NCBI GenBank assembly: GCA_000004695.1
Contig: CM000151.3
Coordinates: forward strand, 3,712,001-3,776,000
Direction of reading: 5' to 3'
DNA: 64,000 nucleotides
Source: Dictyostelium discoideum
Taxonomy: Eukaryota
Shown here: piece by piece, positions 1 through 64,000 of the stretch
Numbering within the stretch: the stretch's first letter is position 1
Layout: every line of letters starts with the position of its first letter
Notes under the pieces: model-generated
What the model was told of the DNA's origin: nothing
Databases searched by the model: none
What the model saw: only the letters and a program-made list of their open reading frames with translations
Translations under genes and position numbers: made by a program

Positions 1-318
1 TATCAAAAGATTGGAATATTGCAATTTATAAAATTAAAAGAATTGGTATTTTAATAATAAAATAAAAAAAAAAACTTATCTTATAAGTTCTTAAAATTTA
101 TTAAATTAAAATCATATTTGCTTAATTTATTTTAAAACATTTTTTTTTATTATTCAAATACTTTAAATTATTTAAACACATAATAAGAAAATTATTATAA
201 TAATTTGAAATAAAATTTATTTTTATTTTATTGAATTAAATTTAAAATAATTTAATTAAGAGTACATTAATATTATTTTATATTAAAAAACTAATGAAAT
301 GATTAAAATCATATTGAT

Positions 319-3265: not shown

Positions 3266-3338
3266 ATGACAACACCAATTAGTTTAAGTAAACCCAGAGT
3301 AGAATTGAGATTTAAATGTTCACATTTAAAGAATTTGG
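3266..3338 (+). CDS. Copine (C2-C2-vWA) gene, exon 1 (MTTPISLSKPRVELRFKCSHLKNL..., phase 1)
   Basis: ATG at 3266. Donor g|gtaaat at 3339. When spliced to 3460, the junction reads ...CSHLKNLDICSKSDPLIMVF, the conserved start of the copine C2A domain (compare human [22 protein letters not shown]). Confidence 0.75.
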
Positions 3339-3459
3339 GTAAATATCAATAGTATTATTATTATTTAAAATTTATTTATAATTAATAAAATTTTATATTT
3401 ATATTTTTAATACTTATTATTATTATTATTTTTATTTTTTTTTAAAAATTCCAAATCAG

Positions 3460-3701
3460 ATATTTGTAGTAAATCAGATCCATTGATTATGGTTTTTGAC
3501 AAAAGAGGTGAACATGGTGAATCAATATTTGTAGGACAAACTGAAAAAATTAACAATAATTTAAATCCAGAATTTAAAAAATCAGTTATTATTGATTATC
3601 ATTTTGAAAATATTCAAAATCTTAGTTTTATTGTTGTTGATATTGATAAAGAAATTAAAAGAGTTGGTGATTTAGAAGGTAATGATATTATTGGTCAATA
3701 T
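3460..3701 (+). CDS. Copine gene, exon 2 (C2A domain)
   Basis: Acceptor caaatcag| at 3459; frame continues into the supplied ORF 3483..; donor tat|gtatgt at 3702. Confidence 0.75.
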
Positions 3702-3807
3702 GTATGTGTGTTTATATTTTTTTTTAATAATAATTATTTATTTTCATTGTTATTCAAATATTAATACTTTATTATTATTATTATTATTATTATTATTTCT
3801 GAAATAG

Positions 3808-5085
3808 ACAACAACATTAGGTAATATTATATCAAAACCAAATAAAAAAGTTATTAGCGAAATTAAACATAAAGGTAAAGAAACAGGTGTTATTGAGATA
3901 ACAGCAGAAGAAATTCGTGAAACTGGTCATAACTTTTTATTTAAAATTAATGGTACAAAATTGGATAAAAAAGATTTATTTACAAGTGACCCATATTTTA
4001 AGATTTATAAAACCTCATCAAGTGGTAATGTATTGGTTTATCAAAGTGTTGTAATTAAGAATACATTAAATCCAAATTATGAACCAGTGATGATGAAATT
4101 AGAGGAATTAAATAATGGTGATATGTTTAGAGAATTGGTATTTGAATTTTGGGATCATGATTCAGTTGGTGAGCATGATTTCATTGGATTATTCACAACC
4201 AATGCCGATACAGTTTTAAAAGGTATCACTAGAGAATTCCCGTTAATCAATGCAAAGAAAGCAGCTAAAAAATCAGGTTCCTATAAGAATTCTGGTGTAA
4301 TAACATTTACAGATTGTAGATTAGTTGGACAACCAACTTTTATAGATTACTTATCAGGTGGTTGTGAAATTAATTTAATGGTTGCAATTGATTGTACTGC
4401 AAGTAATGGTTCACCATCAACTTCAACTTCATTACATTATCACACACCAAGCCATCCAAGCCAATATGCAAAATCAATCTTTTCAGTTGGTTCAGTATTG
4501 GCACCATATGATTCTGATGGAAATATTGAGGTGTTGGGTTTTGGTGGTATTCATAGGGGTAGTACAAGTCATTGTTTCCAATTTGGTTCAAAAAAAGAAG
4601 TACGTGGTGTTGAGGGTGTTTTATTAACTTATGGTGAAGTTATACCATCAATGTCATTATCTTATCCAACCAATTTCAAAGATATCATTTCTTACGCTGC
4701 AAAGAAATCATTGGATGGTGTTACTTCAAAATCTCAAAAATATACTATACTCTTAATTTTAACCGATGGTGAAATCTCTGATATGAATGAAACAGTTCAT
4801 GAAATTGTTAAGGCTTCAAAACAATCACCTCTCTCTATAGTTATCATTGGTATTGGTGAAGCTACATTCGATAATATGAATAGATTGGATGGTGATGATG
4901 GTAATTCTTTAACTGATTCTTCAGGTCAAACTGCAACTCGTGATATCGTTCAATTCGTACCATTCAATAATTTCTCTGCAAATCCTGAAGCTTTAGCCAC
5001 TGAAACACTTCGTGAAATACCTCAACAATTACTTGGTTTTATGAACCAAAATAATTATTTACCAATGAGTCATAGATTAAAATAA
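3808..5085 (+). CDS. Copine gene, exon 3 (second C2 domain plus vWA domain with ...ILLILTDGEISDM...)
   Basis: Acceptor aaatag| at 3807 sits in frame with the long ORF 3961..5085. The C2-C2-vWA architecture is diagnostic of copines. The intron 3702..3807 contains (TTA)n. Confidence 0.85.
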   Translation, partial: TTTLGNIISKPNKKVISEIKHKGKETGVIEITAEEIRETGHNFLFKINGTKLDKKDLFTSDPYFKIYKTSSSGNVLVYQSVVIKNTLNPNYEPVMMKLEELNNGDMFRELVFEFWDHDSVGEHDFIGLFTTNADTVLKGITREFPLINAKKAAKKSGSYKNSGVITFTDCRLVGQPTFIDYLSGGCEINLMVAIDCTASNGSPSTSTSLHYHTPSHPSQYAKSIFSVGSVLAPYDSDGNIEVLGFGGIHRGSTSHCFQFGSKKEVRGVEGVLLTYGEVIPSMSLSYPTNFKDIISYAAKKSLDGVTSKSQKYTILLILTDGEISDMNETVHEIVKASKQSPLSIVIIGIGEATFDNMNRLDGDDGNSLTDSSGQTATRDIVQFVPFNNFSANPEALATETLREIPQQLLGFMNQNNYLPMSHRLK

Positions 5086-5160
5086 AATAAATTTGTAGTT
5101 TAAAATATTAATTTTTAATTTTTTTTTTTTTATAATTATATTATTAGTATTATTATTTTT

Positions 5161-5301
<141 letters not shown>

Positions 5302-5730
5302 TTTATTATGATTTAAACTATTATTTTCTGTTTTACTATCAGATTTAGAATCATAGCTTAATTTTTCTTATAAATTTATAATATAATTGAGTTTAAATGT
5401 TGAATTGTTTGCTTTATAACTATGTTCTACCATTGTTTTTGTAATTTCTTTCAATGTATTTGTATTTAAAAACATTGATTTAATTCATTATTATTTTTAT
5501 TTTTTTTATAATACTAATAAAAAACTTAATATTTTAAAAAAAAATCTTAAAATCTTTATTTCTTAAAATATAATTAAATTAATGGCTACTGTACTTTTTA
5601 AGCGAATAAAATTAAAAAAATAAGTAAATATTAAATTTTTGTGTTGTTATATTTTGCGCATGTAAAAAACAAAAAGTATAAAATAATATTTTTTATTTTT
5701 TTTTTTTTTTGTGAAAACAGAGTGATAACA

Positions 5731-6126
5731 ATGAAATTAATTTTATTTTTATTTATATTGTTTAGTATTTTATTTTTTTTAAAAAATGTTGAAAGTGCAA
5801 GTGATGTAGTTTGCTCATTTGGTTACGAAGCATGTGGAAATAGGTGTTATAGTCCATCATCAGGTCAAAGATGTTATCCAGGTGATGTAGTTTGTTCATT
5901 TGGTTACGAGGCATGTGGAAATGGGTGTTATAGTCCATCATCAGGTCAAAGATGTTATCCAGGTGGTTTAGTTTGTTCATTTGGTTACGAAGCATGTGGA
6001 AATAGGTGTTATAGTCCATCATCAGGACAAAGATGTTATCCAGGTGGTTTAGTTTGTTCATTTGGTTATGAACAATGTGGGAATAGGTGTTATAATCCGT
6101 CCTCTGGTCAAAGATGTTTTAATTAA
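5731..6126 (+). CDS. Small secreted Cys-rich protein: signal peptide followed by four near-identical tandem repeats of about 28 aa (VVCSFGYEACGNRCYSPSSGQRCYPGG; C-x6-C-x3-C-x8-C)
   Basis: ATG at 5731 followed by a hydrophobic leader MKLILFLFILFSILFFLKNVESA. Four repeats of 81-87 nt are seen directly in the DNA. Stop at 6124-6126. Confidence 0.7.
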   Translation: MKLILFLFILFSILFFLKNVESASDVVCSFGYEACGNRCYSPSSGQRCYPGDVVCSFGYEACGNGCYSPSSGQRCYPGGLVCSFGYEACGNRCYSPSSGQRCYPGGLVCSFGYEQCGNRCYNPSSGQRCFN

Positions 6127-6586
6127 TAAATTAACACAAATTTCATTTATGTTCCAGTTTGAACGGCCTAATGATCACAAAATATTAATTCTCCTAATAA
6201 AATCTCAATGTATTCCAATGAGTCGTAGATCAAAATAAAATATATTATTATATTTGAGTTAAAAAAATAATAATATTAATTTTAAATTTTTTTTTTTTTT
6301 TTTTTATTTTTTATTTTCTAAACATTTTTAATTAAATAAATAAAATTAATTTATAAAGTGAATAAAGAAATATAATAATTTATTTTTTTCATTTTTATTA
6401 CATTTCATCTTCAAATCTTTTTTTAATAATTTCTAAAATTTTATCATTACTATTATTTGAATCTAAAATTATTGTTTCCACTAAATTTATATTGTTACTT
6501 TTATTATTATTATTTTTTAAAATTAAAAAAGTATCTGATAAATTTCTAAATTTTTTAATATCTTTATTTGGTGAATTTAGAACTAC

Positions 6587-6943
6587 CTAAATATTTAATA
6601 TGGTATGGTTTATATTAGTATTATTTAATAAAGTAATAATTTTATATATTAATCTTACAAATGGAAATATTGGATTTGATTCATTCTCTAAAAATTCAAT
6701 AATTTTATCAGAGGAATTACTATCATTACTAATAATTATTGGAATTTTTGTTAATTGATTTAAAACAGAGTTTAAAATTAATTTTGAATTATCTTTATTA
6801 TCAAAAAATAAAGAATTTATATCAAGTGATAATTTTAAATCACCAATTTGAGTCATAAATTTAAAACATTCATTTTTATTGTTTTCATCATTTGAAACTA
6901 TTAAAAGTTGTTTAATTGGTCTAGTTAAATTTTTATCTAATCT
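6587..6943 (-). CDS. Hypothetical protein, exon 2 (RLDKNLTRPIKQLLIVSNDENNKNECFKFMTQIGDLKLSL...HTILNI*)
   Basis: Acceptor aaaaaaaag| (minus) at 6944-6945 gives a phase-0 join to exon 1. Frame is continuous with the supplied ORF 6587..6856. Confidence 0.45.
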   Translation of the reverse strand, partial: RLDKNLTRPIKQLLIVSNDENNKNECFKFMTQIGDLKLSLDINSLFFDNKDNSKLILNSVLNQLTKIPIIISNDSNSSDKIIEFLENESNPIFPFVRLIYKIITLLNNTNINHTILNI

Positions 6944-6972
6944 CTTTTTTTTATTATTTTAATTTTAAGGGT

Positions 6973-7033
<61 letters not shown>

Positions 7034-7067
7034 GTAATAAACAAATTTTTAATGAAGAAATGAATAC

Positions 7068-7265
7068 CTTTAAAGGATTACAACCAATTCTTGGTACTTC
7101 AACATCTAAAGGTTTCTTTAACCTGTAAAAAGGTTGCTCTGTTTCATTATTATTGATAAATTCTATTTTTGGGAATAATGAATTTAATTCTGATATATTA
7201 TTGCTTTTAGTATAAAATCTGCATTTTGATATAAAATTATTAAAATTTTTTGAAAAAGATATCAT
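7068..7265 (-). CDS. Hypothetical protein, exon 1 (MISFSKNFNNFISKCRF...PRIGCNPLK)
   Basis: ATG at 7265. Donor aag|gtattc (minus). The supplied ORF 6954..7265 reads through the intron as poly-Leu, which is (TAA)n on the plus strand. Confidence 0.5.
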
Positions 7266-7285
7266 TGTTTTTTATTGGGAATGCG

Positions 7286-7365
<80 letters not shown>

Positions 7366-7727
7366 TTGAGATATTTATTATTATGGTAATGTAAAAATGG
7401 TTTTTTTAATTATTAAATTAGTTTCAAAACAATAATTAATTTAAATTAGTTTCAAAACAATGAAGATTCAAAATGGCATCGAAAAATAAAAAAAAAAATA
7501 AAAAGTCAAATTTCACAAAAAAAATGGAAATAAGGTTTCGGTTTTTGTTTTATTATAATAAAAATAGGCCATTTTTTTTTTTTTTTTATGAATTTTATTT
7601 TTTTTTTTTTTTTTTTATTTTTGTTTTTATTTTTATTTTTATTTTTATTTTTATTTTTATTTTTTGTAACTTTTCGACTAAAAATAAAAAAAAATATTAC
7701 TTTGTTGTAAAAAAAAAAAAAAAAAAA

Positions 7728-8144
7728 ATGACAACACCAAAACCAACAATTGCCAAGATCTCACCAGAATGTCAAACACATTTTCAAGATATTAAATTTA
7801 GAAATAAATATCAAGGTATTTTATTAAAAGTAAATGAAGAGAGTAATATGGTAGTTGATAAAACATTAGTTGCAGAAGGAGAATTCTCAGAATTGGCTCA
7901 ATCATTACCAACTGATCAATGTAGAATTATTATTTATAGATATAAATCTGGTGAAGGTTCAAAATTATTTTTTATTTATTGGGGCCCAGATTCAGCACCA
8001 CAACAAGATAAACTCATTTATGGTAATGCTAAAGTAACTCTTGCCATTACCTTGAAAGGTATTGATCATAAAATTTCTGCTTCAAATTTAAAAGAAATCT
8101 CTGAACAAGTTTTTATTGATAGAATTACTCCAAAAACTGCTTAA
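7728..8144 (+). CDS. ADF-H domain protein, cofilin/actin-depolymerising-factor family (138 aa)
   Basis: ATG at 7728 lies within ORF 7473..8144; the upstream part of that ORF is poly-F/poly-K low-complexity read-through. Motifs [20 protein letters not shown] and [13 protein letters not shown] match cofilin (compare Dictyostelium cofilin LPENECRY...FVAWCPD). Confidence 0.8.
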
Positions 8145-8173
8145 TTTAAATTAAATTAATTATAATAATAATA

Positions 8174-8221
<48 letters not shown>

Positions 8222-8252
8222 TTCAATTCTAAAAATAAAAAAAAAAAAAAAT

Positions 8253-8364
8253 GGGTTTGGGTGTTGGGGTTGGGGGAGGGGTATTGGGTTATTACATTTT
8301 ATTATTATTATTTTTTATTTTTATCTCCCACACTTTATTTTTGTTAAGACCCACACCACATAAC
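8253..8364. promoter_or_regulatory. G-rich block (gggtttgggtgttggggttgggggaggggtattgggtt) followed by a C/A-rich block (ctcccacac...gacccacaccacataacc), about 200-300 bp upstream of the second cofilin-family gene: candidate G-box/CA-rich elements of the GBF type
   Basis: Sharp GC island in an otherwise more than 90% AT intergenic region. The assignment to G-box-binding-factor sites is by resemblance to the known G-rich/CAE consensus only. Confidence 0.35.
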
Positions 8365-8545
8365 CGTTAGATTATTATAATAAATTTAATATTATATTAT
8401 TTAATTTATTTATTTATTTTTTTTTTTTTAAAAAAAAAAAACCAGTTTAATAAAAAAAAAAAAAAAATTTAAAAATAGAAATAATAAATAAAAAAAATAA
8501 AAAAAAAGTAATAACTAAAAAAAAAAATAAATAATAAAAAAAAAA

Positions 8546-8977
8546 ATGTCAGCACCATTATCACCTTCTCCAACAGTTGTAAAATTATCACCAGAATGTC
8601 AACAATATTATCAAGATGTTAGAATTAAAAACAAATATCAAGGTGTAGTTTATAAAATTAATAAAGAAAGTAATCAAATGATAATTGATAAAACATTTCC
8701 AAATGATTGTAATTTTAATGAATTAACTCAATGTTTTAAAGAAAATGAATGTTGTATTATCGTTTTTAAATATGTAATTTCAAATTCACAATCAAAATTA
8801 TTTTTTATTTATTGGGGTTCTGAAACTGCACCACAAACTGATAAGGTTTTATACAGTAACGCAAAATTAACTTTAGCAATAACATTAAAAGGTATTGATA
8901 TTAAAATTGCTGGCACTAAAAAATCTGAATTAACTGAAGAAATTTTTAAAGAAAGAGCCATACCAAAACAAGCTTAA
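8546..8977 (+). CDS. ADF-H domain protein, cofilin family, tandem paralog (143 aa)
   Basis: Clean ATG. Motifs [12 protein letters not shown] and [13 protein letters not shown]. It has the same architecture as the 7728 gene, 400 bp downstream. Confidence 0.85.
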
Positions 8978-9082
8978 AAAAATAAAAAAAAAATAAATAA
9001 AAAAAAAAAAAAAAAAAAAAAACATATATTTTTTAGTTTATTATTACAATTAAAATACATAAAATTATTATTAGTTAATTAT

Positions 9083-10555
9083 TTAAATAAAATTAATTTT
9101 TATAAATTTTGAAATATTATTTAAATTATTTTTTGGATAATTTTTTGAAAGTGTTAAAGTTTCCAATTTACAAGGTAGATGATCACCATTTAAAGGATAT
9201 TTAAAGGAGATACCAAATTTTAAATGTTTAATATTTGAATTTGAAATTGCACCTTTGTCAATTGGTTGATTAAAAGAATCACCATAGGTAAGATTAGTTA
9301 TTGAATTTGAAATAAATGAATTTTTTAAAGGTTGATTAAAAGTATTACCAGTATCTAATGATTGGATTGTTAAAGGTATTGAAATTGCAAAATCAATTAT
9401 ATTATTAAAATTTGAAGAGAATTTTAAATTTTTTATAGTTGAAGGAATACCATGTAAAACTTTATCAACTTCTAAAGTTTCAACAGATTCACCAATTAAA
9501 TGTAAACTTTTAAAATAATAACCAATTGAAACTGATTTTAAATTCTTTGGGAATACAACATCTTGCAGTGAACAAGGACTAAATTTAATTGATTCTAAAT
9601 TGCATGGTAAAACGTTATGCCCAATTGGATAGTAATAACTTTTACCAAGATCTAATGATTTCAAAGAGTATGGTAAACTTCCTTTATAAATTTGTTGAGA
9701 AAAGTGTTGACCCAATTCTAAAACTTCCAAACCTTGAGGTAAAACACCAACATAAATTGATTTATTAAAATTACATTGAAATCTTAATTCTTTTAAATTT
9801 GGTGGTAATAATGAAACCCTTTGTTTTTCATCATAAATCGATTGATTAAAACCTTTGAATTTTAATTTTTCAATTGATTTTAGTAATTTAAATTCTTGAT
9901 TTAATAAAAATTGATTCCATTGTAAGCCAAGTTCAAGTACTTTTAATTTACTTGGTATTGAATTTGAATTTATTAATTTATTAAATGAATCACCTAATAT
10001 TAAAACCTCTAAATCATTTGGTAAACTACCTATTTCAATCAATTGATTAAAAGAATTTCCAATTTTTAAATATTTCAAACCCAATGGTAAACTTGTGAAT
10101 GGAATTAATTCTTGATTGAATTTATCGCCCAATGTTAATGATTTCAATGATTTTGGTAACATATTTTGATTTGATAATTTTTGATTAAATGAATTTCCAC
10201 CCAAATCAATTGTAATTAAAGATGTTGAAAAATTTGTTAAATAAAATATTTTATTAAATGAATTTCCAAATTTAATTGATTTAATTATTAAATCATTCCA
10301 ATTATTATTATTATTATTATTTTTTAAAAATGATTCTTCATTTATATTGTCATCATTAAAATAATCATTAAATGTTATTTCTGATATATACTCTTTAAAT
10401 TTAATTTCATTTAATTCTTTTAAACTTTTTAAATAATAATGATAATGTTTATCTAATAATTTCATTTGATTAAAAATTTCTTTTTTTAAAAATATATTTC
10501 TAAAAATATTTAAAAATAAATCTCCACCATCATTCTTTACTTTTCTTTGATTCAT
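9083..10555 (-). CDS. FNIP-repeat-containing protein (490 aa)
   Basis: Repeated approximately 22-aa units (...LP.SLK.L.LG..FNQ.I...) characteristic of Dictyostelium FNIP repeats; single ORF. Confidence 0.8.
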   Translation of the reverse strand: MNQRKVKNDGGDLFLNIFRNIFLKKEIFNQMKLLDKHYHYYLKSLKELNEIKFKEYISEITFNDYFNDDNINEESFLKNNNNNNNWNDLIIKSIKFGNSFNKIFYLTNFSTSLITIDLGGNSFNQKLSNQNMLPKSLKSLTLGDKFNQELIPFTSLPLGLKYLKIGNSFNQLIEIGSLPNDLEVLILGDSFNKLINSNSIPSKLKVLELGLQWNQFLLNQEFKLLKSIEKLKFKGFNQSIYDEKQRVSLLPPNLKELRFQCNFNKSIYVGVLPQGLEVLELGQHFSQQIYKGSLPYSLKSLDLGKSYYYPIGHNVLPCNLESIKFSPCSLQDVVFPKNLKSVSIGYYFKSLHLIGESVETLEVDKVLHGIPSTIKNLKFSSNFNNIIDFAISIPLTIQSLDTGNTFNQPLKNSFISNSITNLTYGDSFNQPIDKGAISNSNIKHLKFGISFKYPLNGDHLPCKLETLTLSKNYPKNNLNNISKFIKINFI

Positions 10556-10673
10556 TTATTTATTTTATTAATTTATAAGAAAAAAAAAAAAAAAAAAAAA
10601 ATTAAAGAGAGTGTTTGTTATTTGTGATCGTTTTTTTTTTTTAATTGTTTTTTTGTGATTGTTTTTTTCGTCC

Positions 10674-10716
<43 letters not shown>

Positions 10717-10936
10717 CTTATAAAAATAAACTTTTTTTCTTTGGACTGGTCCAAAAATAAAAAATTAAAAATTAAAAATAAAATAAAATTATATTTATAA
10801 ATCTTTGAATTATGAAAAAAAAAAATCTAAAAAAAAAAAAAAAAAATAATTGTTTTTTTTTTTTTTTTTCCAATCAAAATTAAAAAATAATTGTTTTTTT
10901 TTTTATTTTTTTATTTTTTATTATTTTATTTTTTTT

Positions 10937-12295
10937 TTAATTATAATAAATTATCTGAATTTTTTTATTATTTAGATTATTATAATTTTTTAATAAATTT
11001 AAAGATTGGAAAGAATTATGAAACATTAATATTTCTATCGAAGATGGTAAATGATTTAAATTGATTTCTTTTGAATATAAAGGACCAAACTTTAAATGAG
11101 TTAAACCATCAGGTAAACAATTTGCATTAATTTGTTGATTGAAAAAGTGACTAAATATAATTGATTTTAAATTTCCATTCTTTGGTAAACTAAATTCATT
11201 CAATGGTTGATTCCATTTTAGTCCAAAATCGATTTCAGTTACTGAACAAGGTATTTGTTCCATTGAGATTTCTCTATTAAATTGCACACCGAATTTAACT
11301 TTTAAAACTGAATTTGGTATAGTTCCAACCATTATCTCATCGTTAAAATATTTATCAAATTTAAATATTTTAATTGAATTTGGATATTTATTAATTTTAT
11401 TATTATTTTTATTATTTACATTATTATTTTTATTATTATATACACTATTACCACCAATTTTTAATTTTTCAACACCATTTGGTATGTATTGAATTGGTTG
11501 ATTATAGGATAAACCAAATGATATTGATTTTAAATTACCAGATAATGGTAAAACACCCAATGATAAAGGACAATTGAAATTTTTACCAAATTTTAGGCAG
11601 GTTAGACTCGGTGGTAATGAATTAATTTGAATATCTTGATTAAATGATTCACCAAATTCCAATGAAGTCAATGATGATGAATTTGGTGAGAATGAATTTT
11701 GATTAATCGCTTGATTAAATGAATAACCAAATGTTATCTTTTTTACAGAGTTTGGGAATATATTATTATTATTATAATTATTATTATTTTTAAAATTAAT
11801 TAATGATAATGGTTCGTCAAAATAAAAACTAAATGTAATATGTTGTAAATATTCTCTATATTGAAAATTAAGTAACGATTTTAAATCATTAAATTCAAAA
11901 CTTGAATAAAGGTTATATAAACGTTGATGAAATAGTATTTCATTCTTTAAGAAAAAGTTTCTCCAAACTTTCCAAAATAATAATTCTTTATAATCAGTAT
12001 TATTTGAATTATAAATTGTAAATTTTGAATCAGACATTGATATAATTTTAATATTTCCAACATTTTCATTTGAAAATGAAATAATTTTATCTTCAATTAA
12101 TTTTTCATTATTTAAATTTAATAATGATGATTCACATGATGACGATGACGATGATGATGATGGTGTTGATGTTAATGTATATGGTGATGAAGATGAAATA
12201 TTTGATTTTTCCATACAATTTAATTTTCTTTTTTTATCACTTCTATTATCAATATTATTATTAATATTATTTGTGTGATTTGAAAAATTAATAAA

Positions 12296-56654: not shown

Positions 56655-56754
56655 NNNNNNNNNNNNNNNNNNNNNNNNNNNNNNNNNNNNNNNNNNNNNN
56701 NNNNNNNNNNNNNNNNNNNNNNNNNNNNNNNNNNNNNNNNNNNNNNNNNNNNNN
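56655..56754. other. Assembly gap (100 N)
   Basis: Run of n characters in the sequence. Confidence 0.99.
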
Positions 56755-56885
56755 AAAATTGGGGTGCACCAAAATTTACATCAGCAGAGAGATTTGAAGC
56801 ACAATTTAGTAAAATTAAAGACCTTTTGACAAACAATACAAACAACCAAGATCAACATAAATTTGAAAGAGTAAAAAAAATATTA

Positions 56886-57287
56886 ATGGCAACATTTTTA
56901 GATAATTTTAACAATCTAAAAGAAAAAGATGATGACAATAATGATTTAATTTTAGGGCAAATAATTAAAAAAAATGAAAATATTTATTTAAAAAATAATA
57001 TTTTATCAGACATTAACTTGCATTACAAAAACATTGAAAATATTCAATTTCATAAATCAATTAAAAATTTAAAAGAAATATATAATGTTGGTGATGGAAT
57101 TGAAGTTGCCTCAGAAAATTCATTAACTGGACGATGGAGTGCAATAATTATTGCTATTTGTTTAATAGAATTAAAAAATAAAAAAAGTGCACATTCTATT
57201 TATATACAATACTTTGATAAAGATACAGGTGATCAAAATAATAAGTACCACTTTTTAAGAAAAAGCTTTTCAAGTATAACATATTAA
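56886..57287 (+). CDS. Orphan ORF (133 aa from the first ATG) immediately downstream of the assembly gap
   Basis: Open frame bounded upstream by tga at 56823; coding status and completeness unknown; may be an exon of a gene interrupted by the gap. Confidence 0.3.
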   Translation: MATFLDNFNNLKEKDDDNNDLILGQIIKKNENIYLKNNILSDINLHYKNIENIQFHKSIKNLKEIYNVGDGIEVASENSLTGRWSAIIIAICLIELKNKKSAHSIYIQYFDKDTGDQNNKYHFLRKSFSSITY

Positions 57288-57396
57288 ACACATTAATACC
57301 AATACAAATCGATTCGTCTAACTATCTTATAATTTATAAGTGCCATGACCAATTTTCAATAAGTAAAAAAAAAAAATGAAAAAAATTCGTTGAACT

Positions 57397-57598
57397 CACA
57401 GCGAAGAAAAAACCACCTTTAAATTCGCTTTAAATTAAATTTAAATTTGCTTTAAAGTCCTGAATTAAAGCAATTTTAAAGGTAATTTTAAAGGTAATTT
57501 TTAAGGTTACTTTAAAATTACCTTTAAAATTACCTTTAAAATTACCTTTTTAATCGCTTTAAAAGCGAGGTCCTGAGTTCGAAGCCGTTATTTAACGG
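57397..57598. repeat. Outer terminal inverted repeat, left arm
   Basis: Reverse-complement match to 62690-62902. Rich in the motif aaaggtaatttt. Contains the B-box-like gagttcgaagcc. Confidence 0.7.
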
Positions 57599-57796
57599 AT
57601 AAATTTTTTAAATTTTTTTTTTTAATTTTTCAAAAATTACCAAAAGGGATTCGATCCCCCGACCCTCTATTAAAGGGTAGTCTCATCAACCATTACACCA
57701 TTTGATTGCTTTGATGAAAAATTTAAAAATGATAGAATATTTTATCCCCATTTTTTTGTTCTAAAATTAGATCTTTTTTATTAAAAACCTTTAATT

Positions 57797-58010
57797 TATG
57801 TTTAAAGGAAATTTAAATTCACTTTAAATCTACTTTAAATCCTATTTAAAATTAATTTAAAATAAATTTTAAAGGTATTTTTAAATGTCTTAAAAATTAT
57901 CTTAAATTTACCTTAAAAATCACCTTTAAAATCACCTTTAAAATCACCTTTAAAATTGCTTAAAAATTTATTTTAAAGCAAATTTTAAAGGCATTTTTAA
58001 ATATCTTAAA
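57797..58010. repeat. Inner inverted repeat, left arm ((tttaaaggt/aatttta) periodic motif)
   Basis: Reverse-complement match to 59701-59930 over more than 200 nt with few mismatches. Confidence 0.7.
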
Positions 58011-58259
58011 AATTACCTTAAAAATTACCTTAAAAATGAATTTTTTAAACGCGGCTTTAAATTCAATTTAAATCCAATTTAAATCAACTTTTCTTTAAAT
58101 TTGCTTTAAAGGTGCATTTTTCTTTGCTGTGCTTATTTACATAACTTTTACATTTTTACGTAACTTTTTCTTTTTTTTTTTTCTTTTTTCCAATTTTCTT
58201 TTTTTTCGGTTGGAAATTATAGGATTTTAAAAAAAAATTAAAAAAATATTATAAAAAAA

Positions 58260-58541
58260 ATGACTCACAATAATTCTGCATCATTTGAAACACCAAATAG
58301 AAGTGGTAATTATGTAAATAGATCATCTTTAACTTCACCAACATCACCAATAACACCAATCACATCTCTTATTTTAAATCAAACTGATACCTCCATAGGT
58401 CCACAACGTACTGTTAGAAGACAACAAAGACCTCAAAGACCAAATGCAAGTCATCCACCAACAACAAATATTGTAGAAAAAATATTGGTGTATGAAACAT
58501 TGCACAGAAATTGTGTTTCTCAATACTATGCAACTGGTAAG
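58260..58541 (+). CDS. Gene inside the IR-bounded element, exon 1 (S/T/P-rich N-terminus ...CVSQYYATGK)
   Basis: ATG at 58260; donor aag|gtaaga at 58542. Confidence 0.5.
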
Positions 58542-58549
58542 GTAAGATA

Positions 58550-58594
<45 letters not shown>

Positions 58595-58635
58595 AAGAGA
58601 CTAATTAAATTAAATAAACAAAAATAATACATAAG

Positions 58636-58854
58636 ATTTCCTCTCGTTTTATTAGGACCTGTATATTAAATGCTGGCGGTACAAATTCAAATGAAAATAA
58701 AGTTGTTCTATCCAAATTGGTTAAATGGGTCAACAATAAACGTGGTAACACACGTATTAAAGCCCTAAATACCCTTAGACTTTTAGTTAGAAATAAAGTA
58801 GAACAGTTCAGCGAGTTGCTCTCTCAGGTTCCACCATTAATGGAGTATGAATCG
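58636..58854 (+). CDS. Gene inside the IR-bounded element, exon 2 (ISSRFIRTCILNAGG...KVVLSKLVKWVNNKRGNTRIKALNTLRLLVRNKVEQFSELLSQVPPLMEYES)
   Basis: A phase-0 acceptor cataag| at 58635 is needed for frame continuity; the nearer ttattag| at 58660 is out of phase. Donor tcg|gtatgt at 58855. Codons are GC-richer than the genome norm. Confidence 0.4.
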
Positions 58855-58963
58855 GTATGTAAAAAAAAAAAAAAAATAAAAAATAAAAAAAAAATAAAAA
58901 AAAAAAAAAAAAAAAAATAAATTATTAATAATTTGTTTTTTTAATTTTTTAATTATTATTTAG

Positions 58964-59233
58964 ATAACTCCTTTTGATTTGGCCACTCTTATTATCGATA
59001 CAGTTACCTTAGAAGCTTTTGACTCCGATCCTTTTGTAAAGTTCTTAGTGTCTCAATGCTTTACAATTGAAGAAAAAGAATGGTACAGCGGTTCCAAACC
59101 TCTTATTTCTTTAATAGTTAAAGCATTGCGTGGTGTTTCTCAAAAGTTCATTGACTCTCCTGATGAACTTACTTACACTGAAAAGGTTGCTTTTGAATTC
59201 ACTTCAATACCTCTTTATGCTCCACTAAATTAA
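58964..59233 (+). CDS. Gene inside the IR-bounded element, exon 3 (ITPFDLATLIIDTVTLEAFDSDPFVKFLVSQCF...LYAPLN*); ARM/HEAT-like helical repeats
   Basis: Acceptor tatttag| at 58963, in frame with ORF 58979..59233. Confidence 0.5.
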   Translation: MTPFDLATLIIDTVTLEAFDSDPFVKFLVSQCFTIEEKEWYSGSKPLISLIVKALRGVSQKFIDSPDELTYTEKVAFEFTSIPLYAPLN

Positions 59234-59499
59234 ATCGTTTAAATAAAAAAAATTAATATGATTTCACATACTCAACTTTAATTTTTTCTTTTTTTTTTAA
59301 ATCTTTTTTTAATTTTTATTTTAAATTATTTTTTTTAATTTTTATTTTTAAAGTGATATTATTAATATATCTTATCAAGTTAACTTTATAATATAAATTT
59401 ATAAATGCACTTTTAAATTGAATTTTATAAATATAATTAATAAGAATACTTAATAAGTGTACTTACAAAGAGTACATTATAATTATAATTAGTAATTAC

Positions 59500-59702
59500 G
59501 CTTAATAATTATACTTAATAAGTATATTTAATAAGTATACTTAATAAGTATACTTAATAAGTATATTTAATAAGTATACTTAATAAGTATACTTAATAAG
59601 TATATTTAATAAGTATACTTAATAAGTATACTTAATAAGTATATTTAATAAGTATACTTAATAAGTATACTTAATAAGTATATTTAATAAGTATACTTAA
59701 TA
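59500..59702. repeat. Tandem array of about 16 copies of a 13-nt palindromic unit (TAATAAGTATACT/TAATAAGTATATT) with a 39-nt super-period
   Basis: Directly visible. The unit contains the palindrome AGTATACT. A related palindromic copy lies at 60040-60095. Confidence 0.85.
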
Positions 59703-59930
59703 ATATTTAAAAATGCCTTTAAAATTTGCTTTAAAATAAATTTTTAAGCAATTTTAAAGGTGATTTTAAAGGTGATTTTAAAGGTAATTTTTAAGGTAAT
59801 TTTTAAGATAATTTTTAAGATATTTAAAAATACCTTTAAAATTTATTTTAAATTAATTTTAAATAGGATTTAAAGTAGAATTAAAGTGAATTTAAAGTGA
59901 ATTTAAATTTCCTTTAAACATAAATATTAT
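59701..59930. repeat. Inner inverted repeat, right arm
   Basis: Reverse complement of 57797-58010. Confidence 0.7.
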
Positions 59931-60137
59931 TTTTTTCGTTAAAAAAAAAAAATTCCAAAATTTTTTATTTTTTTTTGTGTTAAAAAAAAATTCCTAAATT
60001 TTTTTTTTTATTGTATTTTTTTTCATCACACCATTATAAATTCTATGTACTTAATAAGTATTACTTATTAAGTATACTTATTAATATATATTAAAAAGAG
60101 TACTTGGATTTAAAGGTGCTTTAAAGTGTTGATTTTC

Positions 60138-62470
60138 GCCGCTGTGTGGATTGGTATCGACTCTACTGATTGTTTGGTCAATACTTCTTGGAATGTTCCC
60201 AGTACTTGAGGAAACATATGACGATGATGACGAGGAACTTGAGCTTGAATCATCGGATACCAAGTTGCTGATCTCCAGATTGGGAAGATCAGTATTATAG
60301 AAACCTTCTTCGAACTGGATGAGTTCATCTTCTCCAGTATAGAAGGCAAAAGAATGGGTGGTGGAAAGGCCAGACATTACTTATATTGACTCCAATCGAG
60401 GTGGAGTGCATTCATTCTGATTGTTGAGTAGTTGTTCGTTTGATGGTTGAGGTGAGATGCGAACAGATCCATCTGTATTTGACCGAATTGAAGTTGCCAG
60501 TTGTAACTCTTGATTACTCTGGTCGATGATATGTGATTCATCTCTGAAAGACGACTGAGGTGGTCGGCTTTTACATTATTCATAATATATATATATATGA
60601 TAATATAAATTAAATTTTTAAATCTTATTCATAATATATATATATATATATATGATAATATAAATTACCAGCCTTATTCTTAATCACAAGCTTGTGTTCG
60701 AGTTTACTTAAAAAATACTACAAATATGTATGTTGTAACTCTTCCACTAAAGAATCCAGCTCTCCACGGTATGCTTGCTGTAGTTCTGCCTCATGAGCCT
60801 GGAGACGTTCCTCAGGAGACAAGCTATGGCTGAACGAATTAGACAGAATAACACCACGAGGGATACCGTAGTGGGATAGGTTAGATGCCTTCATAACAAA
60901 CCAGAAGTTTAACAGCCAACTCACTACCATGTCATTGTTAGAGACTCAAAACTAAATTAATTTAAAGTTAGTTTGAGCTCAACAACATAACAAATTCGCG
61001 CATCTCCATGTAAAAATATTTCATTTAATTTTTGTTTTTTATTTTTTATTTTTTCAGTCAAAAAATAAAATTAAAAAAATTAAATAAAATTAAAATTTAA
61101 AAAAATAATAAAAATTCTGATTTTCGGTTTAGTTAGATAACGCCCTTACATTCAATTATCTGTTTTATGTATGTTTACTTTTATGATGTTAGTCTTTCAC
61201 TCTTTCTATCCTTCATATGGAATGACATTAGATTAAAGATTGGACTAGTTCGGTTAAAGATTGAACAAATGTGACAATGGATTGAAGATTAGTGTGAGAA
61301 ACTTTTACAGTCATCGTATCCAGACGCCTTGTGGTCAATACGACCATTCTTAACAACCAGACTGGTGATCTCATTAATCAGCGTTTTATCGTGAGTAACA
61401 CGACCAGCGCGTTTAGCCGCTTCAGGTAGGACTTCACCGTACAGTGTCAACGCGATTCGGCTGTAGTAACGAACCCAAACTTGTTACGCACGTCATCGTA
61501 GAAATAACTACCACGAGGACGCAGTGGATTGTTAACCATAGCAGCTGCATTTTTATCCACCTTCACCTCTTCAACAATCCAGTTAAAAATATGTTTGAAT
61601 GGATCAATACCTTGTAACGGCGAATTTAATCAGGTTAGTTTCATTACAACCCCCTGCATCTACTGTAACCATATCACGAATGTAAGTAAACACTAAACCA
61701 ATGGCATCTCTACCGATCGCTTCCGAGGGATCCATCCCTAGTAGAATGTGTGCCCCTTCGTTAATTTCTCATGTCGATCTTTTGGTATGTGTCAGCCGAT
61801 ACTGTAACCGTCTTTGGAACTCAGTCCACAGTGGGTCACGTTCATAGTCACGGATAATGTTGTTTAGCTCAGTTGACAGAGGTGAACGTAAAGAACCTGA
61901 TGTCCAGCGGTTAAAGAAGTCACGGTCTGCTTCTTTAATTTTAACACCGGAGTTCTGCAATGCGTCACGCAGCCATTCTTTATCCAAACCAAGCTGACGA
62001 TAACTCCACGTCCCGTTAATCATAATAAGCGCACCTTTCTTACCGATGAGTTTGATTAATACGGTACGTAGTTCTTCCTGGTTTCTCAGGTCTATGATGG
62101 TCTTTAACCCAAAGATAAGACGGCAGTAGATCGCGAATCTCTTTTAATCGGTCGAAGTTAGACCGTCAGTAGTGCGTCATCCTTCGTAATCAGGTTAATG
62201 CTGATGGTATCTGACGAACCAGACTTACCGGTCTGACGGGGATTAACATGTAGTCGATGTGGTTATAGAAGCTCCAGATCAAACTCAGGTTAGCACGGTT
62301 TGCTTTAAAAGGACGCGGCGTTGCACCCGCAGAGAATCTAACGACCTCACGATAGTAATACCATGGGTTGAATCGACATTCGATAGCGAATTAATTTCTT
62401 ATGACAGATCGGTGGCAAATGGATCCACTGACTTAATTCCTGTTGAAGGAGACTAAGCATGAATGTACAG
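60138..62470 (-). mobile_element. GC-richer (about 45-50% GC) exon-like blocks of a degenerate integrase/RNase-H-like gene, possibly a transposase, interrupted by AT-rich intron-like spacers
   Basis: Minus-strand open frames at 62023-61769, 61610-61300, 60930-60718, 60583-60377 and 60377-60081 sit in different phases. Motifs NNVKADHLSR (like N..ADALSR at the RNase H/integrase junction) and IDHKASGYDD (like RT/IN D.K.SGY). A GTAAAAG donor-like site falls exactly at the GC-to-AT transition at 61300. An AT-rich spacer spans 60940-61300. Confidence 0.4.
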
Positions 62471-62689
62471 TTCTCAACACCCATTTCTTTATAAAGATTT
62501 AGAAATTCAAGTTAATCAAATAATATTAATATTGTATTTGTATTCAAAGTGAAAAACTAAATTTTTCGAAAAACGAAAAACTTCGTAAAGTATCAAAATA
62601 CTTTACAAAAATTCAAAAAAAAATTCAAAAAAAAATTCAAAAAAAAATTCAAAAAAAAATTCAAAAAAAAAAAATTTAAAAAAATTTAT

Positions 62690-62902
62690 CCGTTAAATAA
62701 CGGCTTCGAACTCCGGACCTCGCTTTTAAAGGATTAAAAAGCTAATTTTTAAGGTAATTTTAAAGGTATTTTTTAAGGTGATTTTAAAGTAAACTTAAAA
62801 ATTACCTTTAAAATTACCTTAAAAATTGCTTTAATTCAGGACTTTAAATTCGCTTTAAATTAAATTTAAATTTGCTTTAAAGGAGGATTTTTCTTCGCTG
62901 TG
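62690..62902. repeat. Outer terminal inverted repeat, right arm
   Basis: Reverse complement of 57397-57598. Confidence 0.7.
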
Positions 62903-62939
62903 GAATAAGCTGAGTTATTTCGAAAAAAGTTTATTTTTT

Positions 62940-63990
62940 TTTGACAAATTTTGCATGTTTTTTTTTTTTTTTTTTAATAAAACACATTATTTAAAACAAA
63001 AATTTTAAATAATATAAAACAATATTTGTTAAGACCTATCGTAGAATTAAATTTGGTTGTATTTATGGAGAAATAAAGAAAATATAAAAAAAAATGAACT
63101 TCGAAAAAAAAAAAAGGAACTTCAAAAAAAAAAAACTACATAAAATTTTTGTTTTAAATAATGGGGGACCTATCAGTGAATAATTGAATTAATTTTGAAA
63201 AAAAAAAGTTATTTTGAAAAAGATCGAGTTATCCCGGAAAAGATCAATCTTTTCGCGAAAAATTTTTCATTGGCCATATTATTTTTTTTTTTTTTAATTT
63301 TTTTCATTTATTCACAATTAAAATAAAAAATATAATAAATAAATAAATAAATAAAATAAATAGTATGATTGACAAAAAAAAATCAAAAATACCAGGGCTC
63401 AAATAAAGGATTTATTTTTTATATGTAGTTTTTTTTTTTTAAGTTCCTTTTTTTTTTCGAAATTCATTTTTTTTTATATTTTTTTTATTTCTCTATAAAT
63501 ACAACCAAATTTAATTCTACGACAGTCTTTACAAATATTGTTTTATATTATTTAAAATTTTTGTTTTAAATAATGTGTTTTATTAAAAAAAAAAAAAAAA
63601 AAAACATATGAAAAGTGAAAAATTTTTCAAAAAAAAATAAACTTTTTTCGAAATAACTCAATTTATTCCGGGATAACTCGATCTTTTTCAAAATAACTTT
63701 ATTTATTCAGAATTAATTCAATTATCCACTGATAGGTCCATTATTTAAAATTTTTGTTTTAAATAATGTGTTTTATTAAAAAAAAAAAAAAAAAAACATA
63801 TAAAATTTGAAAAAATTTCGAAAAAAAAAACTTTTTTTGAAATAAATGAATTTATTCTGAGATAACTCGATCTTTTTTAAAATATGCTGAGTTAATTATA
63901 ACAGAAATTTTTACTTTATTTTTTATTTTTTATTTTTTATTTTATTGACTAAATTATTTTTAAAAAAACAATTACAGATAATATTGAAGC
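62940..63990. repeat. Cluster of inverted and direct repeats at the window end (unit ...ttaataaaacacattatttaaaacaaaaattttaaataatataaaacaatatttgt...)
   Basis: 62960-63130 is the reverse complement of 63455-63595. A further partial copy lies at 63720-63790. Interspersed motifs ataactcgatc and ttcgaaa. Confidence 0.6.
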
Positions 63991-64000
63991 AGGTGAAATA

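Follow-up and report, generated by a model that had tools for sequence, protein, structure and literature searches.

Precedents for foreign genes of this kind include phage-type lysozymes in eukaryotes and the bacterial-origin genes that have been listed for the genome of Dictyostelium discoideum; we found no published report of the phage relic described here. Among DNA transposons, the CMC superfamily includes maize En/Spm, from which the non-autonomous dSpm elements derive. The Foldback (FB) elements of Drosophila make 9-bp target duplications, and integrase-type elements are expected to make duplications of 4-5 bp. In D. discoideum itself, three putative DNA transposons (DDT-A, DDT-B, and DDT-S) were reportedly described by Gloeckner et al. 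in 2001. The consensus of DDT-B has 5471 bp and includes an A/B-box motif that is tRNA-like (PMC9012585). Tdd-4 and Tdd-5 are Ginger-like, integrase-type DNA transposons of the same species (PMC2836005).

We analyzed positions 57397-62902 of a 64,000-nucleotide stretch of chromosome 2 of D. discoideum AX4 (the window) by comparing it with related loci that we fetched (L002-L007, L012, and L013). An earlier note, made from the letters alone, had read this interval as a single composite element bounded by inverted repeats. We conclude instead that it is very probably a transposon nest, formed by successive independent insertions. The nest itself is ordinary and probably belongs to the poorly described DDT family. 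Inside it, however, 60640-62511 is, as judged from sequence comparison, a pseudogene of a jumbo-phage terminase large subunit.

Architecture of the locus

The features are as follows. S, G, and H are our names for one short and two long transposons.

56755-57396, plus strand: C-terminal part of G ORF1, a putative transposase (90-92% nucleotide identity to the G copies in L003, L007, L012, and L013)
57397-58131, plus strand: complete 735-bp non-autonomous DNA transposon S (family comparison, target duplication, empty sites)
57631-57717, minus strand: tRNA-like core of S, with box A-like and box B-like motifs (resemblance judged by eye)
58260-59233, plus strand: G ORF2, which is DDB_G0274765, three exons, 256 aa (exact translation match, P0016)
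59427-59703, no strand: 13-nt satellite, palindromic, which forms the inner portion of the right terminal repeat of G (TRF, 21.3 copies)
59703-59949, minus strand: internal fragment (about positions 608-398, inverted) of a second S-type copy, 93-96% identical to S copies
60041-60146, plus strand: rest of the satellite and right terminus of G, ...TTTTCGCCGCTGTG (flank divergence)
60147-60583, minus strand: DIRS-1 pol fragment, end of RNase H and methyltransferase-like domain (motifs, Pfam, nucleotide identity)
60576-60684, no strand: TA-rich 49-bp tandem duplication at the junction of the terminase relic and the DIRS-1 fragment (TRF, 2.2 copies)
60640-60935, minus strand: terminase relic, C-terminal residues 587 to about 690 of 707 (tblastn, 63-70% amino acid identity)
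60936-61309, minus strand: 374-bp Dictyostelium repeat with TG...CA ends, solo-LTR-like, inserted in the terminase relic (5-bp duplication, second copy)
61310-62511, minus strand: terminase relic, aa 26-588 (blastn, tblastn, L004, 1409 homologues)
62512-62654, no strand: AT-rich spacer with a perfect (AAAAATTCAAAA) x5.4 tandem repeat (tandem-repeat analysis)
62655-62902, minus strand: one half (positions 1-234, inverted) of a third S-type copy, 86-90% identical to S copies

The repeats that the earlier note had seen are real, and its coordinates are correct to within a few bases. The outer inverted pair (57397-57630 versus 62902-62655) matches at 85.9% over 249 nt (E = 8e-78), and the inner pair (57794-58004 versus 59925-59703) at 93.3% over 223 nt (E = 2e-92). 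The terminus CACAGCGAAGAAAAA recurs exactly at 57397 (plus) and 62902 (minus), with one mismatch at 58131 (minus), and with three mismatches at 60146 (minus). (The other four three-mismatch matches in the window are A-rich chance matches.)

A 5′-truncated copy of G extends from the assembly gap to 60146, with a complete S copy (57397-58131) inserted between its two ORFs and a fragment of a second S copy in its satellite. A third S copy is represented by the half at 62655-62902, and the DIRS-1 fragment and the terminase pseudogene are located between G's right end and this half. The gap, which the earlier note does not mention, is a run of N at 56655-56754, just upstream of the nest, and is where the G copy in the window begins. 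An independent assembly of the same locus (L002) closes the AX4 gap with new sequence.

The short element S

The S family has a 759-bp consensus, CACAG...CTGTG ends, and a 2-bp target duplication. The copy in the window has the ends CACAGCGAAG...CTTTGCTGTG, which agree at 24 of their terminal 32 nt, and arms composed of 11-12-bp TTTAAA-type subterminal repeats in both orientations. It is flanked by a CT duplication. Six further full copies are about 98% identical, and 6 of the 7 copies compared have a perfect 2-bp duplication (CT, TT, AT, TT, AT, and GG; the seventh has CT versus TT). Also, three paralogous G copies (in L003, L012, and L013) have an empty site, with 57396 joined straight to 58132, and L005 has the empty site for an S copy at position 5350 of L002. 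S is a discrete mobile unit.

The tRNA-like core of S is 97-100% conserved across all S copies and is absent elsewhere in the fetched loci, and neither ARAGORN nor Rfam called a tRNA in it. Rfam also gave sub-threshold matches to MITE-type miRNA families.

The other two S copies are incomplete. The fragment at 59703-59949 sits inside the satellite. Beyond it lie about 90 bp rich in A and T, with a 38-bp tandem duplication among them, and the satellite then resumes at 60044-60090. The third copy, which from its identity to S copies is older than the others, ends at 62902 in the terminus ...CTTCGCTGTG. Its right flank is GA, versus CT at 57395-57396, so the pair is not bracketed by a target-site duplication just outside 57397 and 62902. 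As the arms belong to separate 759-type copies, the outer pair is two independent insertions.

The larger element G and its relatives

G comprises ORF1 (the putative transposase), ORF2, and terminal repeats that each consist of the terminus plus the palindromic satellite. Proteins of the ORF1 family have 720-820 aa and were found only in D. discoideum. The three-exon gene of the earlier note holds up exactly, as 58260-59233 translates to the 256 residues of DDB_G0274765, but it is ORF2 of the larger host transposon rather than cargo of a short element. In the G copies seen, ORF2 is always directly downstream of ORF1. Its protein has a disordered N-terminus rich in S, T, P, and Q, followed by an all-helical part; it had no Pfam match and no known domain, and its AlphaFold model is of low confidence.

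The palindromic array was also correctly noticed: 59427-59703 has 21.3 copies, with 86% matches, of the 13-nt unit ATAAGTATACTTA, which contains the 10-nt palindrome AAGTATACTT. An array of identical type lies ahead of the terminus in L003, L005, L006, and L007, and it appears in inverted form at the left end of G in L003 and L007. The right end in the window and two ends in L003 agree as far as CTGTG or CTGTT and have nothing in common beyond that point, and the right ends in L005, L006, and L007 likewise pass into unrelated flanks. Thus, G's right end is 60146. Full copies of G (L007 3434-11226 and L003 1419-11799) have inverted, satellite-bearing ends and matching 2-bp duplications (TA/TA and AA/AA). 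The second long element, H, was seen only in the related locus L002 and is at least 5 kb long. The first 32 nt of the ends of S, G, and H are related at 20-29 positions.

The earlier note was therefore right that several related elements with terminal inverted repeats, or fragments of them, are inserted into or beside one another: all of the arms are from one related transposon family. S, G, and H make up a cut-and-paste family with CACAG...CTGTG ends, 11-13-nt subterminal repeats, and 2-bp duplications, in which S is a 759-bp non-autonomous derivative. We infer that the ORF1 protein of G or H may bind the shared termini and subterminal repeats and so mobilize S in trans, by analogy to CACTA/Mirage-type (CMC) elements.

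Searches of Pfam and of PDB sequences gave no transposase domain in ORF1, and the AlphaFold models are of too low quality to be of help. So, the superfamily of G, H, and S, which would be CMC-like, is suggested by the termini, the size of the duplications, the subterminal repeats, and some recognizable motifs. Compared by description only, G, H, and S most likely correspond to the DDT-A/B/S group of Gloeckner et al., and a DDT-type assignment of the arms is plausible. A paralogue of ORF2 (DDB_G0267252) lacks the _TE tag in a table of dictyBase gene names from 2025, so curation of the family may be incomplete, or this may be a different family, with thug as the other candidate.

The DIRS-1 fragment and the phage terminase relic

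The GC-rich block stands out as described earlier (GC of 0.35-0.38 over 60001-62000, versus about 0.2 in most of the window), and it does derive from coding sequence on the minus strand. However, the retroviral-integrase-like content proposed for it was not borne out: no ORF has an rve/integrase domain, and the block is a DIRS-1 fragment and a terminase pseudogene. The DIRS-1 fragment directly adjoins the terminus of G and reads in a single frame that has one stop. It has the motifs KADHLSR...DLFAS...FPPP...IFPIWRSATWYP, it matches Pfam Dam at 9e-5, and its best matches are Dictyostelium proteins with RT_RNaseH and Dam or Phage_int_SAM domains. It is 85.5% identical in nucleotides to a DIRS-type gene in L007.

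The terminase relic is 76% identical in nucleotides to Erwinia phage pEa_SNUABM_54 (blastn), whose relatives are annotated as terminase large subunit. Its nucleotide identity to six phage or viral loci is 75-77%, and its amino acid identity to metagenomic proteins of 706 aa is 65-73% (1409 homologues compared). An ORF from the relic (P0029) also matches the PHROG terminase family. From tblastn and comparison with a metagenomic relative (L004), the larger part, 61310-62511, changes frame about 8 times, has 4 or more in-frame stops, and lacks the nucleotides that correspond to about 535-874 and 1349-1453 in the phage gene. The C-terminal part continues as SKLEHKLVIKNKAG.

The two parts are separated by the 374-bp repeat, with a 5-bp target duplication (GTCAT at 60931-60935 and 61310-61314) whose bases are terminase codons. 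A second copy of the repeat (L005 5609-6008) is 86.5% identical over its full length and is flanked by ATATG on both sides. Most likely, the gene was acquired horizontally from a phage of ingested bacteria and then decayed; the repeat inserted into it later.

Alternative explanations

First, the DIRS-1 fragment and the terminase relic could be passenger DNA captured by an S/G-type transposon that ends at 62902. CACTA and Pack-MULE elements do carry out transduplication, CACTA-type elements are known to capture host fragments, and the block directly adjoins a half S copy with an intact terminus. Still, this is unlikely: the block has no matching terminus on its other side, the fetched loci yielded no further copy of it, and a 98-aa ORF across the junction of the DIRS-1 fragment and G's terminus falls in a cluster of just two, from AX4 and from the same locus in L002.

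Second, 57397-62902 could be one composite transposon that moves as a unit and carries along the gene, the satellite, and integrase-like exons. The outer arms are genuine inverted repeats with identical 15-nt termini, but the left arm lies within a 735-bp insertion that is complete, is flanked by a CT/CT duplication of its own, and has three known empty sites. The right arm is half of another copy and, at 86-90% identity, is older than the family of the left element (about 98%). Given also the unequal flanks (CT versus GA), the terminus of G at 60146 inside the supposed unit, the presence of the DIRS-1/terminase block in none of the seven other G loci fetched, and the missing integrase domain, we consider a composite very improbable.

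Third, the terminase block could be contamination by a phage of food bacteria or a chimeric clone beside the gap. D. discoideum is grown on Klebsiella, the GC content of the block is foreign, and the gap is only about 4 kb away. Nevertheless, there is very little chance of this. In the independent assembly that closes the gap, the block shows no substitutions at all, and hence the same frameshifts; over 57000-64000 it differs from the window only by two poly-A lengths. (The relic is at one locus only, in these two lab-lineage assemblies.) Dictyostelium transposon sequence lies on both sides in the same contig, and the coding sequence is split by a Dictyostelium repeat whose insertion duplicated 5 bp of the target. 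The gene is also heavily decayed (stops, frameshifts, and deletions), and substitutions in its lineage are biased towards AT (G/C to A/T at 84 of 527 sites, versus 48 of 622 in reverse), with a GC content of 42% versus 46-48% in the phages. Because of the agreement of the assemblies, the inserted repeat, and the biased substitutions, the relic is truly resident in the genome.

Finally, an origin from a eukaryotic virus (herpes- or mirusvirus-like) is hardly credible, for although eukaryotic members of Duplodnaviria encode terminases and can endogenize in protists, the relic is too close to the 706-aa proteins of jumbo phages of Erwinia-type hosts and to phage-like IMG/VR contigs (75-77% nucleotide and 65-73% amino acid identity), and its differences by codon position match those between two phages.

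Comparison with known systems

Like FB elements, S and G have long inverted arms of short tandem subrepeats that can form hairpins, but they make 2-bp rather than 9-bp duplications, and the arms of S are not simple mirror images (beyond the 24 of 32 matching terminal nt, they share only the type of subrepeat). Tdd-4 and Tdd-5 are from the same species and also have terminal inverted repeats. However, the CACAG elements lack an rve/integrase domain, and their duplications are of 2 bp rather than 4-5 bp, so the earlier suggestion of a Tdd-4 type does not fit them. The 374-bp insert, with its TG...CA ends and 5-bp duplication, is what is typical of integrase-mediated insertion.

The resemblance to CMC elements is closer: termini that start with CAC, duplications of 2 bp (2-3 bp in CMC), arrays of subterminal repeats of about 12 nt in direct and inverted orientation, two proteins in the autonomous element, and short non-autonomous derivatives that share only the ends. 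In contrast to CMC elements, the terminus is CACAG instead of CACTA, a Transposase_21/Tnp2 domain was not detected and a catalytic triad was not identified in G, and G's terminal repeat includes a long satellite of perfect palindromes. The DDT group, from the same species, consists of two long elements and a short non-coding one, like the set of G, H, and S; H, at 5 kb or more, compares in length with the DDT-B consensus, and S has a box A/B-like core. That core is a difference as well, as it is in S and not in the parts of G and H that were seen. The DDT elements were called "putative" DNA transposons without an assigned superfamily, which fits the missing Pfam match here.

The relic resembles known transfers from phages or bacteria to eukaryotes in that it is foreign coding sequence of prokaryote or phage type in a phagotrophic eukaryote. 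It differs in kind, as a structural packaging gene for which the host has no obvious use, and in state, as a dead remnant and not a domesticated gene, yet it is still 75-77% identical in nucleotides to extant phages.

A nest of independent insertions

The region at 57397-62902 lies in a transposon-rich stretch of chromosome 2 and was built up by independent insertions, which together form a nest. The earlier note had read it as a single composite element bounded by terminal inverted repeats. The repeats that led to this reading are real: the arms of the outer inverted pair (57397-57630 and 62902-62655) share 85.9% identity across 249 nt and those of the inner pair (57794-58004 and 59925-59703) 93.3% across 223 nt, with E-values far below chance in both cases. 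The 15-nt terminus CACAGCGAAGAAAAA occurs without mismatch at 57397 (+) and 62902 (-), and it recurs with one mismatch at 58131 (-) and with three at 60146 (-). We also recovered the 13-nt array (21 copies at 59427-59703, with the perfect palindrome AAGTATACTT within it) and the shift in composition (GC content of 0.35-0.38 over 60-62 kb, versus about 0.2 across most of the window). However, the sequences just outside the proposed composite do not match (CT versus GA). Instead, the inner and outer arms trace to three separate insertions of one short transposon, S, which agrees with the earlier suggestion of several related elements or fragments. The other family members that we discuss are G, the larger transposon that hosts the complete S copy, and H, a second long element.

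Elements of the S/G/H family (window positions unless a comparison locus is named)
57397-58131: complete copy of S, a discrete unit
59703-59949: internal fragment of S, 93-96% identical to S copies
62655-62902: half copy of S, older, 86-90% identical to S copies
3434-11226 of locus L007: G, 7.8 kb
432-4983 of locus L002, minus strand: ORF of H, an element of at least 5 kb

Our comparison set was nine Dictyostelium loci from newer assemblies. One of these, L002, comes from an independent assembly and covers this very locus; positions 57000-64000 are identical in it except for two differences in poly-A length. The AX4 assembly has a gap (100 N, 56655-56754) just upstream of the nest. L002 covers the gap site with at least 8.5 kb of sequence (1-8495), including four more S copies and H, so the gap conceals a transposon cluster of at least that size. 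We saw no long match between this 8.5-kb stretch and the window sequence to the left of the gap. The stretch also bears a gene for a protein with a zinc-finger domain of the integrase type (Integrase_H2C2).

Other repeats adjoin the nest. Directly after the terminus at 62902 there is a palindromic structure (62902-63145 versus 63669-63419, an inverted match of 89.8%), in which 62958-63035 and 63525-63602 are 99% complementary, and more related repeats are at 63152-63353 and 63536-63750. The structure at 62903-63669 may be a different, foldback-type element. Also, a perfect tandem repeat (62607-62671, (AAAAATTCAAAA) × 5.4) adjoins the half copy of S at the edge of the phage-derived block that is described below.

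The short element S

S is a non-autonomous cut-and-paste element that was active recently and makes a 2-bp target duplication. The seven full copies have a consensus of 759 bp and are about 98% identical, and they differ chiefly in whether single subrepeats of 11-12 nt have been gained or lost. A perfect 2-bp duplication flanks six of the seven (CT, TT, AT, TT, AT, and GG). The insertion site of the window copy is empty at three comparison loci (L003, L012, and L013), where the flanking sequences are contiguous: the window has GAACT[element]CTTATTT while L003 has CAAACTTATTT. The site of the copy at position 5350 of L002 is likewise empty in L005, and we found four empty sites in all. The similarity of the copies, together with the filled and empty sites, indicates that the activity was recent. 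S contains no ORF. Its two terminal 32-nt sequences match at 24 of 32 positions, and further inward the arms are alike only in their 11-12-nt TTTAAA-type repeats, which are present in both orientations.

The core of S (87 nt, 57631-57717 on the minus strand) contains box A-like and box B-like motifs and is 97-100% conserved in every copy in the window, L002, and L005. This core is absent from the parts of G and H that we examined, and neither ARAGORN nor Rfam called a tRNA in it. The element TRE5-A reportedly inserts upstream of an A/B-box motif in DDT-B (PMC9012585), so the tRNA-like core of S could matter for its targeting. More broadly, searches for RNA families with ARAGORN and Rfam gave nothing above threshold. 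The arms of S (57468-57547 and 62748-62835) form long AT-rich hairpins with sub-threshold Rfam matches to MITE-derived miRNA families (mir-3938 at 40.6 bits and mir-548 at 35 bits, versus gathering scores of 90-94).

The long element G and its two genes

Full copies of G (in L005, L006, L007, L012, and L013) have a common order: ORF1, which encodes a putative transposase of 720-820 amino acids; ORF2 (256 amino acids) directly after it; the satellite; and the terminus. The right terminus is ...TTTTCGCC(G/C)CTGTG. In the window and at two ends in L003, the copies agree as far as CTGTG or CTGTT and are unrelated after it, and the right ends in L005, L006, and L007 also run into unrelated flanks, so we place the end of G at 60146 in the window. 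The left end consists of the inverted terminus plus satellite and lies 3.5-6 kb upstream; we did not find it in the window or, in four copies, just upstream of ORF1. The window copy is 5'-truncated at the gap. Both of the complete elements have 2-bp duplications (TA/TA for L007 3434-11226 and AA/AA for L003 1419-11799). The L003 copy apparently hosts a nested Skipper-type LTR retrotransposon. In assembly GCA_054859355.1, the G copies at L003 1419-11799 and L006 865-5677 have about 3.9 kb of upstream sequence in common (94% identity). This stretch bears genes of a chromodomain-containing Skipper-type LTR retrotransposon in L006, and in L003 it lies between the left terminal repeat of G and ORF1. 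These two copies look like a segmental duplication.

The comparison of G copies also accounts for the satellite, which is part of the terminal repeat of G, and for the 3-exon gene, which is ORF2. The translation of the latter is exactly DDB_G0274765 (AX4 chromosome 2). ORF2 has no Pfam domain. Its homologues are found only in D. discoideum strains, and AX4 alone has four or more nearly identical paralogues. It thus behaves like a gene that is carried by a repeat, and DDB_G0274765 and its paralogues are transposon genes. One paralogue on chromosome 1, DDB_G0267252, is among the 28 genes that are significantly up-regulated in a knockout of DNMA (DNMT2), along with several genes of retrotransposons and DNA transposons; in the same table, its dictyBase name does not carry the _TE suffix (PMC12405889).

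The S/G family now has exact ends, a 2-bp target duplication, insertion sites seen both filled and empty, and a likely autonomous partner for S. The transposon part of the region is ordinary and has probably been catalogued before.

The GC-rich block: a DIRS-1 fragment and a probably spurious gene

The GC-rich sequence that the earlier note described as integrase-like exon blocks turned out to be a fragment of DIRS-1 pol plus a relic of a phage terminase gene. The first piece, 60583-60147 on the minus strand, is in a single frame with one stop and contains the motifs KADHLSR...DLFAS...FPPP...IFPIWRSATWYP. It has a Pfam match to Dam (9e-5), and a search of 1.8 billion representative proteins gave as its best relatives Dictyostelium proteins that carry RT_RNaseH plus Dam or Phage_int_SAM domains. 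Also, it is 85.5% identical at the nucleotide level to a gene in L007 with RVT_1 and Phage_integrase domains. In DIRS-1, a tyrosine-recombinase retrotransposon, the RNase H end of pol precedes a Dam-like methyltransferase domain and a tyrosine recombinase lies alongside. We therefore identify these 437 bp as a DIRS-1 pol fragment that abuts the terminus of G. We rejected the alternative of a phage Dam methylase beside the terminase, as no neighbouring phage gene matches the window and the piece matches DIRS elements of Dictyostelium. At the junction of the DIRS-1 fragment and the terminase there is a tandem duplication (60576-60684, a TA-rich 49-bp unit × 2.2).

The 98-amino-acid ORF at 60081-60377 (-) is exactly DDB_G0274763 (AX4 chromosome 2). 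Because it is an alternate-frame ORF that spans the DIRS-1 fragment and the end of G, it is probably spurious. The same probably holds for the 188-amino-acid model P0150, in which a newer assembly fuses DDB_G0274763 with a piece of the terminase relic.

A jumbo-phage gene in the amoeba genome

The unexpected part of the locus is the second piece of the GC-rich block. On the minus strand, 62511-61310 plus 60935-60640 align to amino acids 26 to about 690 of a 707-amino-acid terminase large subunit of a jumbo phage. The nucleotide identity is 76% to Erwinia phage pEa_SNUABM_54 and 75-77% to six phage or IMG/VR loci, and the amino acid identity is 65-73% to four metagenomic proteins of 706 amino acids. 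In related GenBank phages the gene carries the annotation terminase large subunit, and for the closest relative PHROG gives a match to its terminase family (phrog_2). The gene is dead: its reading frame is broken by about eight frame changes and four or more in-frame stops, and it also has two internal deletions (nt ~535-874 and 1349-1453 of the phage gene) and a 374-bp insertion. None of the neighbouring phage genes is present in the window. An exact look-up of five ORFs from the relic and the DIRS-1 fragment in a protein collection found none, and among the papers searched for Dictyostelium with terminase or jumbo phages we found no report of the relic.

The terminase relic is a resident pseudogene, as three lines of evidence show that it is truly in the genome. 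First, L002 carries the block without a single substitution, and hence with the same frameshifts. Second, a 374-bp repeat (60936-61309) splits the coding sequence; it has TG...CA ends and is flanked by a duplication of GTCAT, which is five bases of the terminase gene. A second copy of this repeat in L005 is 86.5% identical and is flanked by ATATG on both sides. Third, the changes in the relic are biased towards AT. At sites where two phage sequences agree and the relic differs, we counted G/C-to-A/T changes at 84 of 527 sites and the reverse at 48 of 622, or about 2:1 per site. Neither phage lineage has a bias of this kind, and the relic's GC content is 42%, versus 46-48% in the phages.

Within the 374-bp insert, 61232-61253 (-) matches miRNA-like_D4 at 21 of 22 positions. 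This RNA is reported to map to four places in the genome, of which two are near telomeres, so it may derive from the family of the 374-bp repeat.

Where did the gene come from? No relatives of the terminase were found in 185,579 bacterial and archaeal species genomes, so it is not a prophage gene. The differences fall mostly at third codon positions, and the excess is similar between the relic and the phages (83/50/212 at positions 1/2/3) and between the two phages (80/48/224), so the donor was an unsampled member of this phage clade and the relic is probably not very old. We consider it quite likely that a structural gene passed directly from a jumbo bacteriophage to the nuclear genome of a bacterivorous amoeba, a hitherto unreported transfer of which these 1.9 kb are the relic, and that they persist in a transposon-rich region as a decaying insert that is neutral. 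The gene most likely came in via the ingestion of infected bacteria. The relic would then be physical evidence of the "you are what you eat" influx of DNA, including DNA of phages inside the prey, which normally goes unseen because useless inserts are lost. It documents the entry of phage DNA into a eukaryotic germ line. If the relic can be dated across Dictyostelium strains and species, it could give a rare estimate of the rate of non-adaptive uptake of foreign DNA by a phagotroph. For a twenty-year-old reference genome, the relic is a genuine surprise, if a modest one.

Relationship to known transposons

The first 32 nt of the ends of S, G, and H are 20-29/32 identical, with S nearest to H (24-27/32). 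We propose that the ORF1 protein of G or H acts on the shared termini and subterminal repeats to mobilise S, as in a CACTA-like system, and that ORF2 is an accessory protein. ORF1 proteins are found only in D. discoideum and D. cf. discoideum and form two subfamilies that are 35-43% identical (BLASTP). Pfam searches with ORF2, ORF1 fragments, a 633-amino-acid ORF1 composite, and 15 aligned ORF1 proteins gave nothing meaningful, and a sequence search of the PDB with the ORF1 profile gave no match. AlphaFold models of ORF1 and ORF2 both have a pLDDT of 42, which is too low for use. Invariant residues in ORF1 (D292, D371, and C391-H-x-C394), together with a beta-beta-beta-alpha-beta pattern in its low-confidence model, may hint at a DDE transposase of the Tnp2/Transposase_21 type.

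In several respects, the S/G/H family resembles CACTA/Mirage-type (CMC) elements. The CACAG termini start with CAC, and the duplications are of 2 bp in six of seven S copies and both full G copies (CMC elements make 2-4 bp). Also, short subterminal repeats are present in both orientations, namely the 11-12-nt TTTAAA-type repeats in the arms of S and the 13-nt satellite in the arms of G. CMC membership is inferred from the ORF1 residues, the termini, the duplication, and the subterminal repeats, and they offer a testable basis for grouping this poorly classified family of Dictyostelium with CACTA/Mirage-like elements.

A second candidate was the Foldback (FB) group, whose members have 9-bp target duplications and near-perfect mirror-image arms. 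It does not fit, as the duplication here is 2 bp and, past the termini (24/32 nt), the arms share only a type of subrepeat. Finally, the assignment to the integrase type of Tdd-4 or Tdd-5 did not survive: the CACAG elements lack an rve core (no rve/integrase match in Pfam for ORF2, the GC-rich ORFs, or 15 ORF1-family proteins), they make duplications of 2 bp rather than 4-5 bp, and their ends are not TG...CA. Ends of that kind with a 5-bp duplication are seen only in the 374-bp insert, which is unrelated to the CACAG elements.

Two long elements and one short one with related ends are also what is described for DDT-A/B/S. DDT-B is 5471 bp and is reported to contain an A/B-box motif (PMC9012585). 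Judging from the two long elements, the short one, and the A/B-box reported for DDT-B, with a box-like core seen here only in S, DDT-A/B/S is the likeliest curated name for the S/G/H family.
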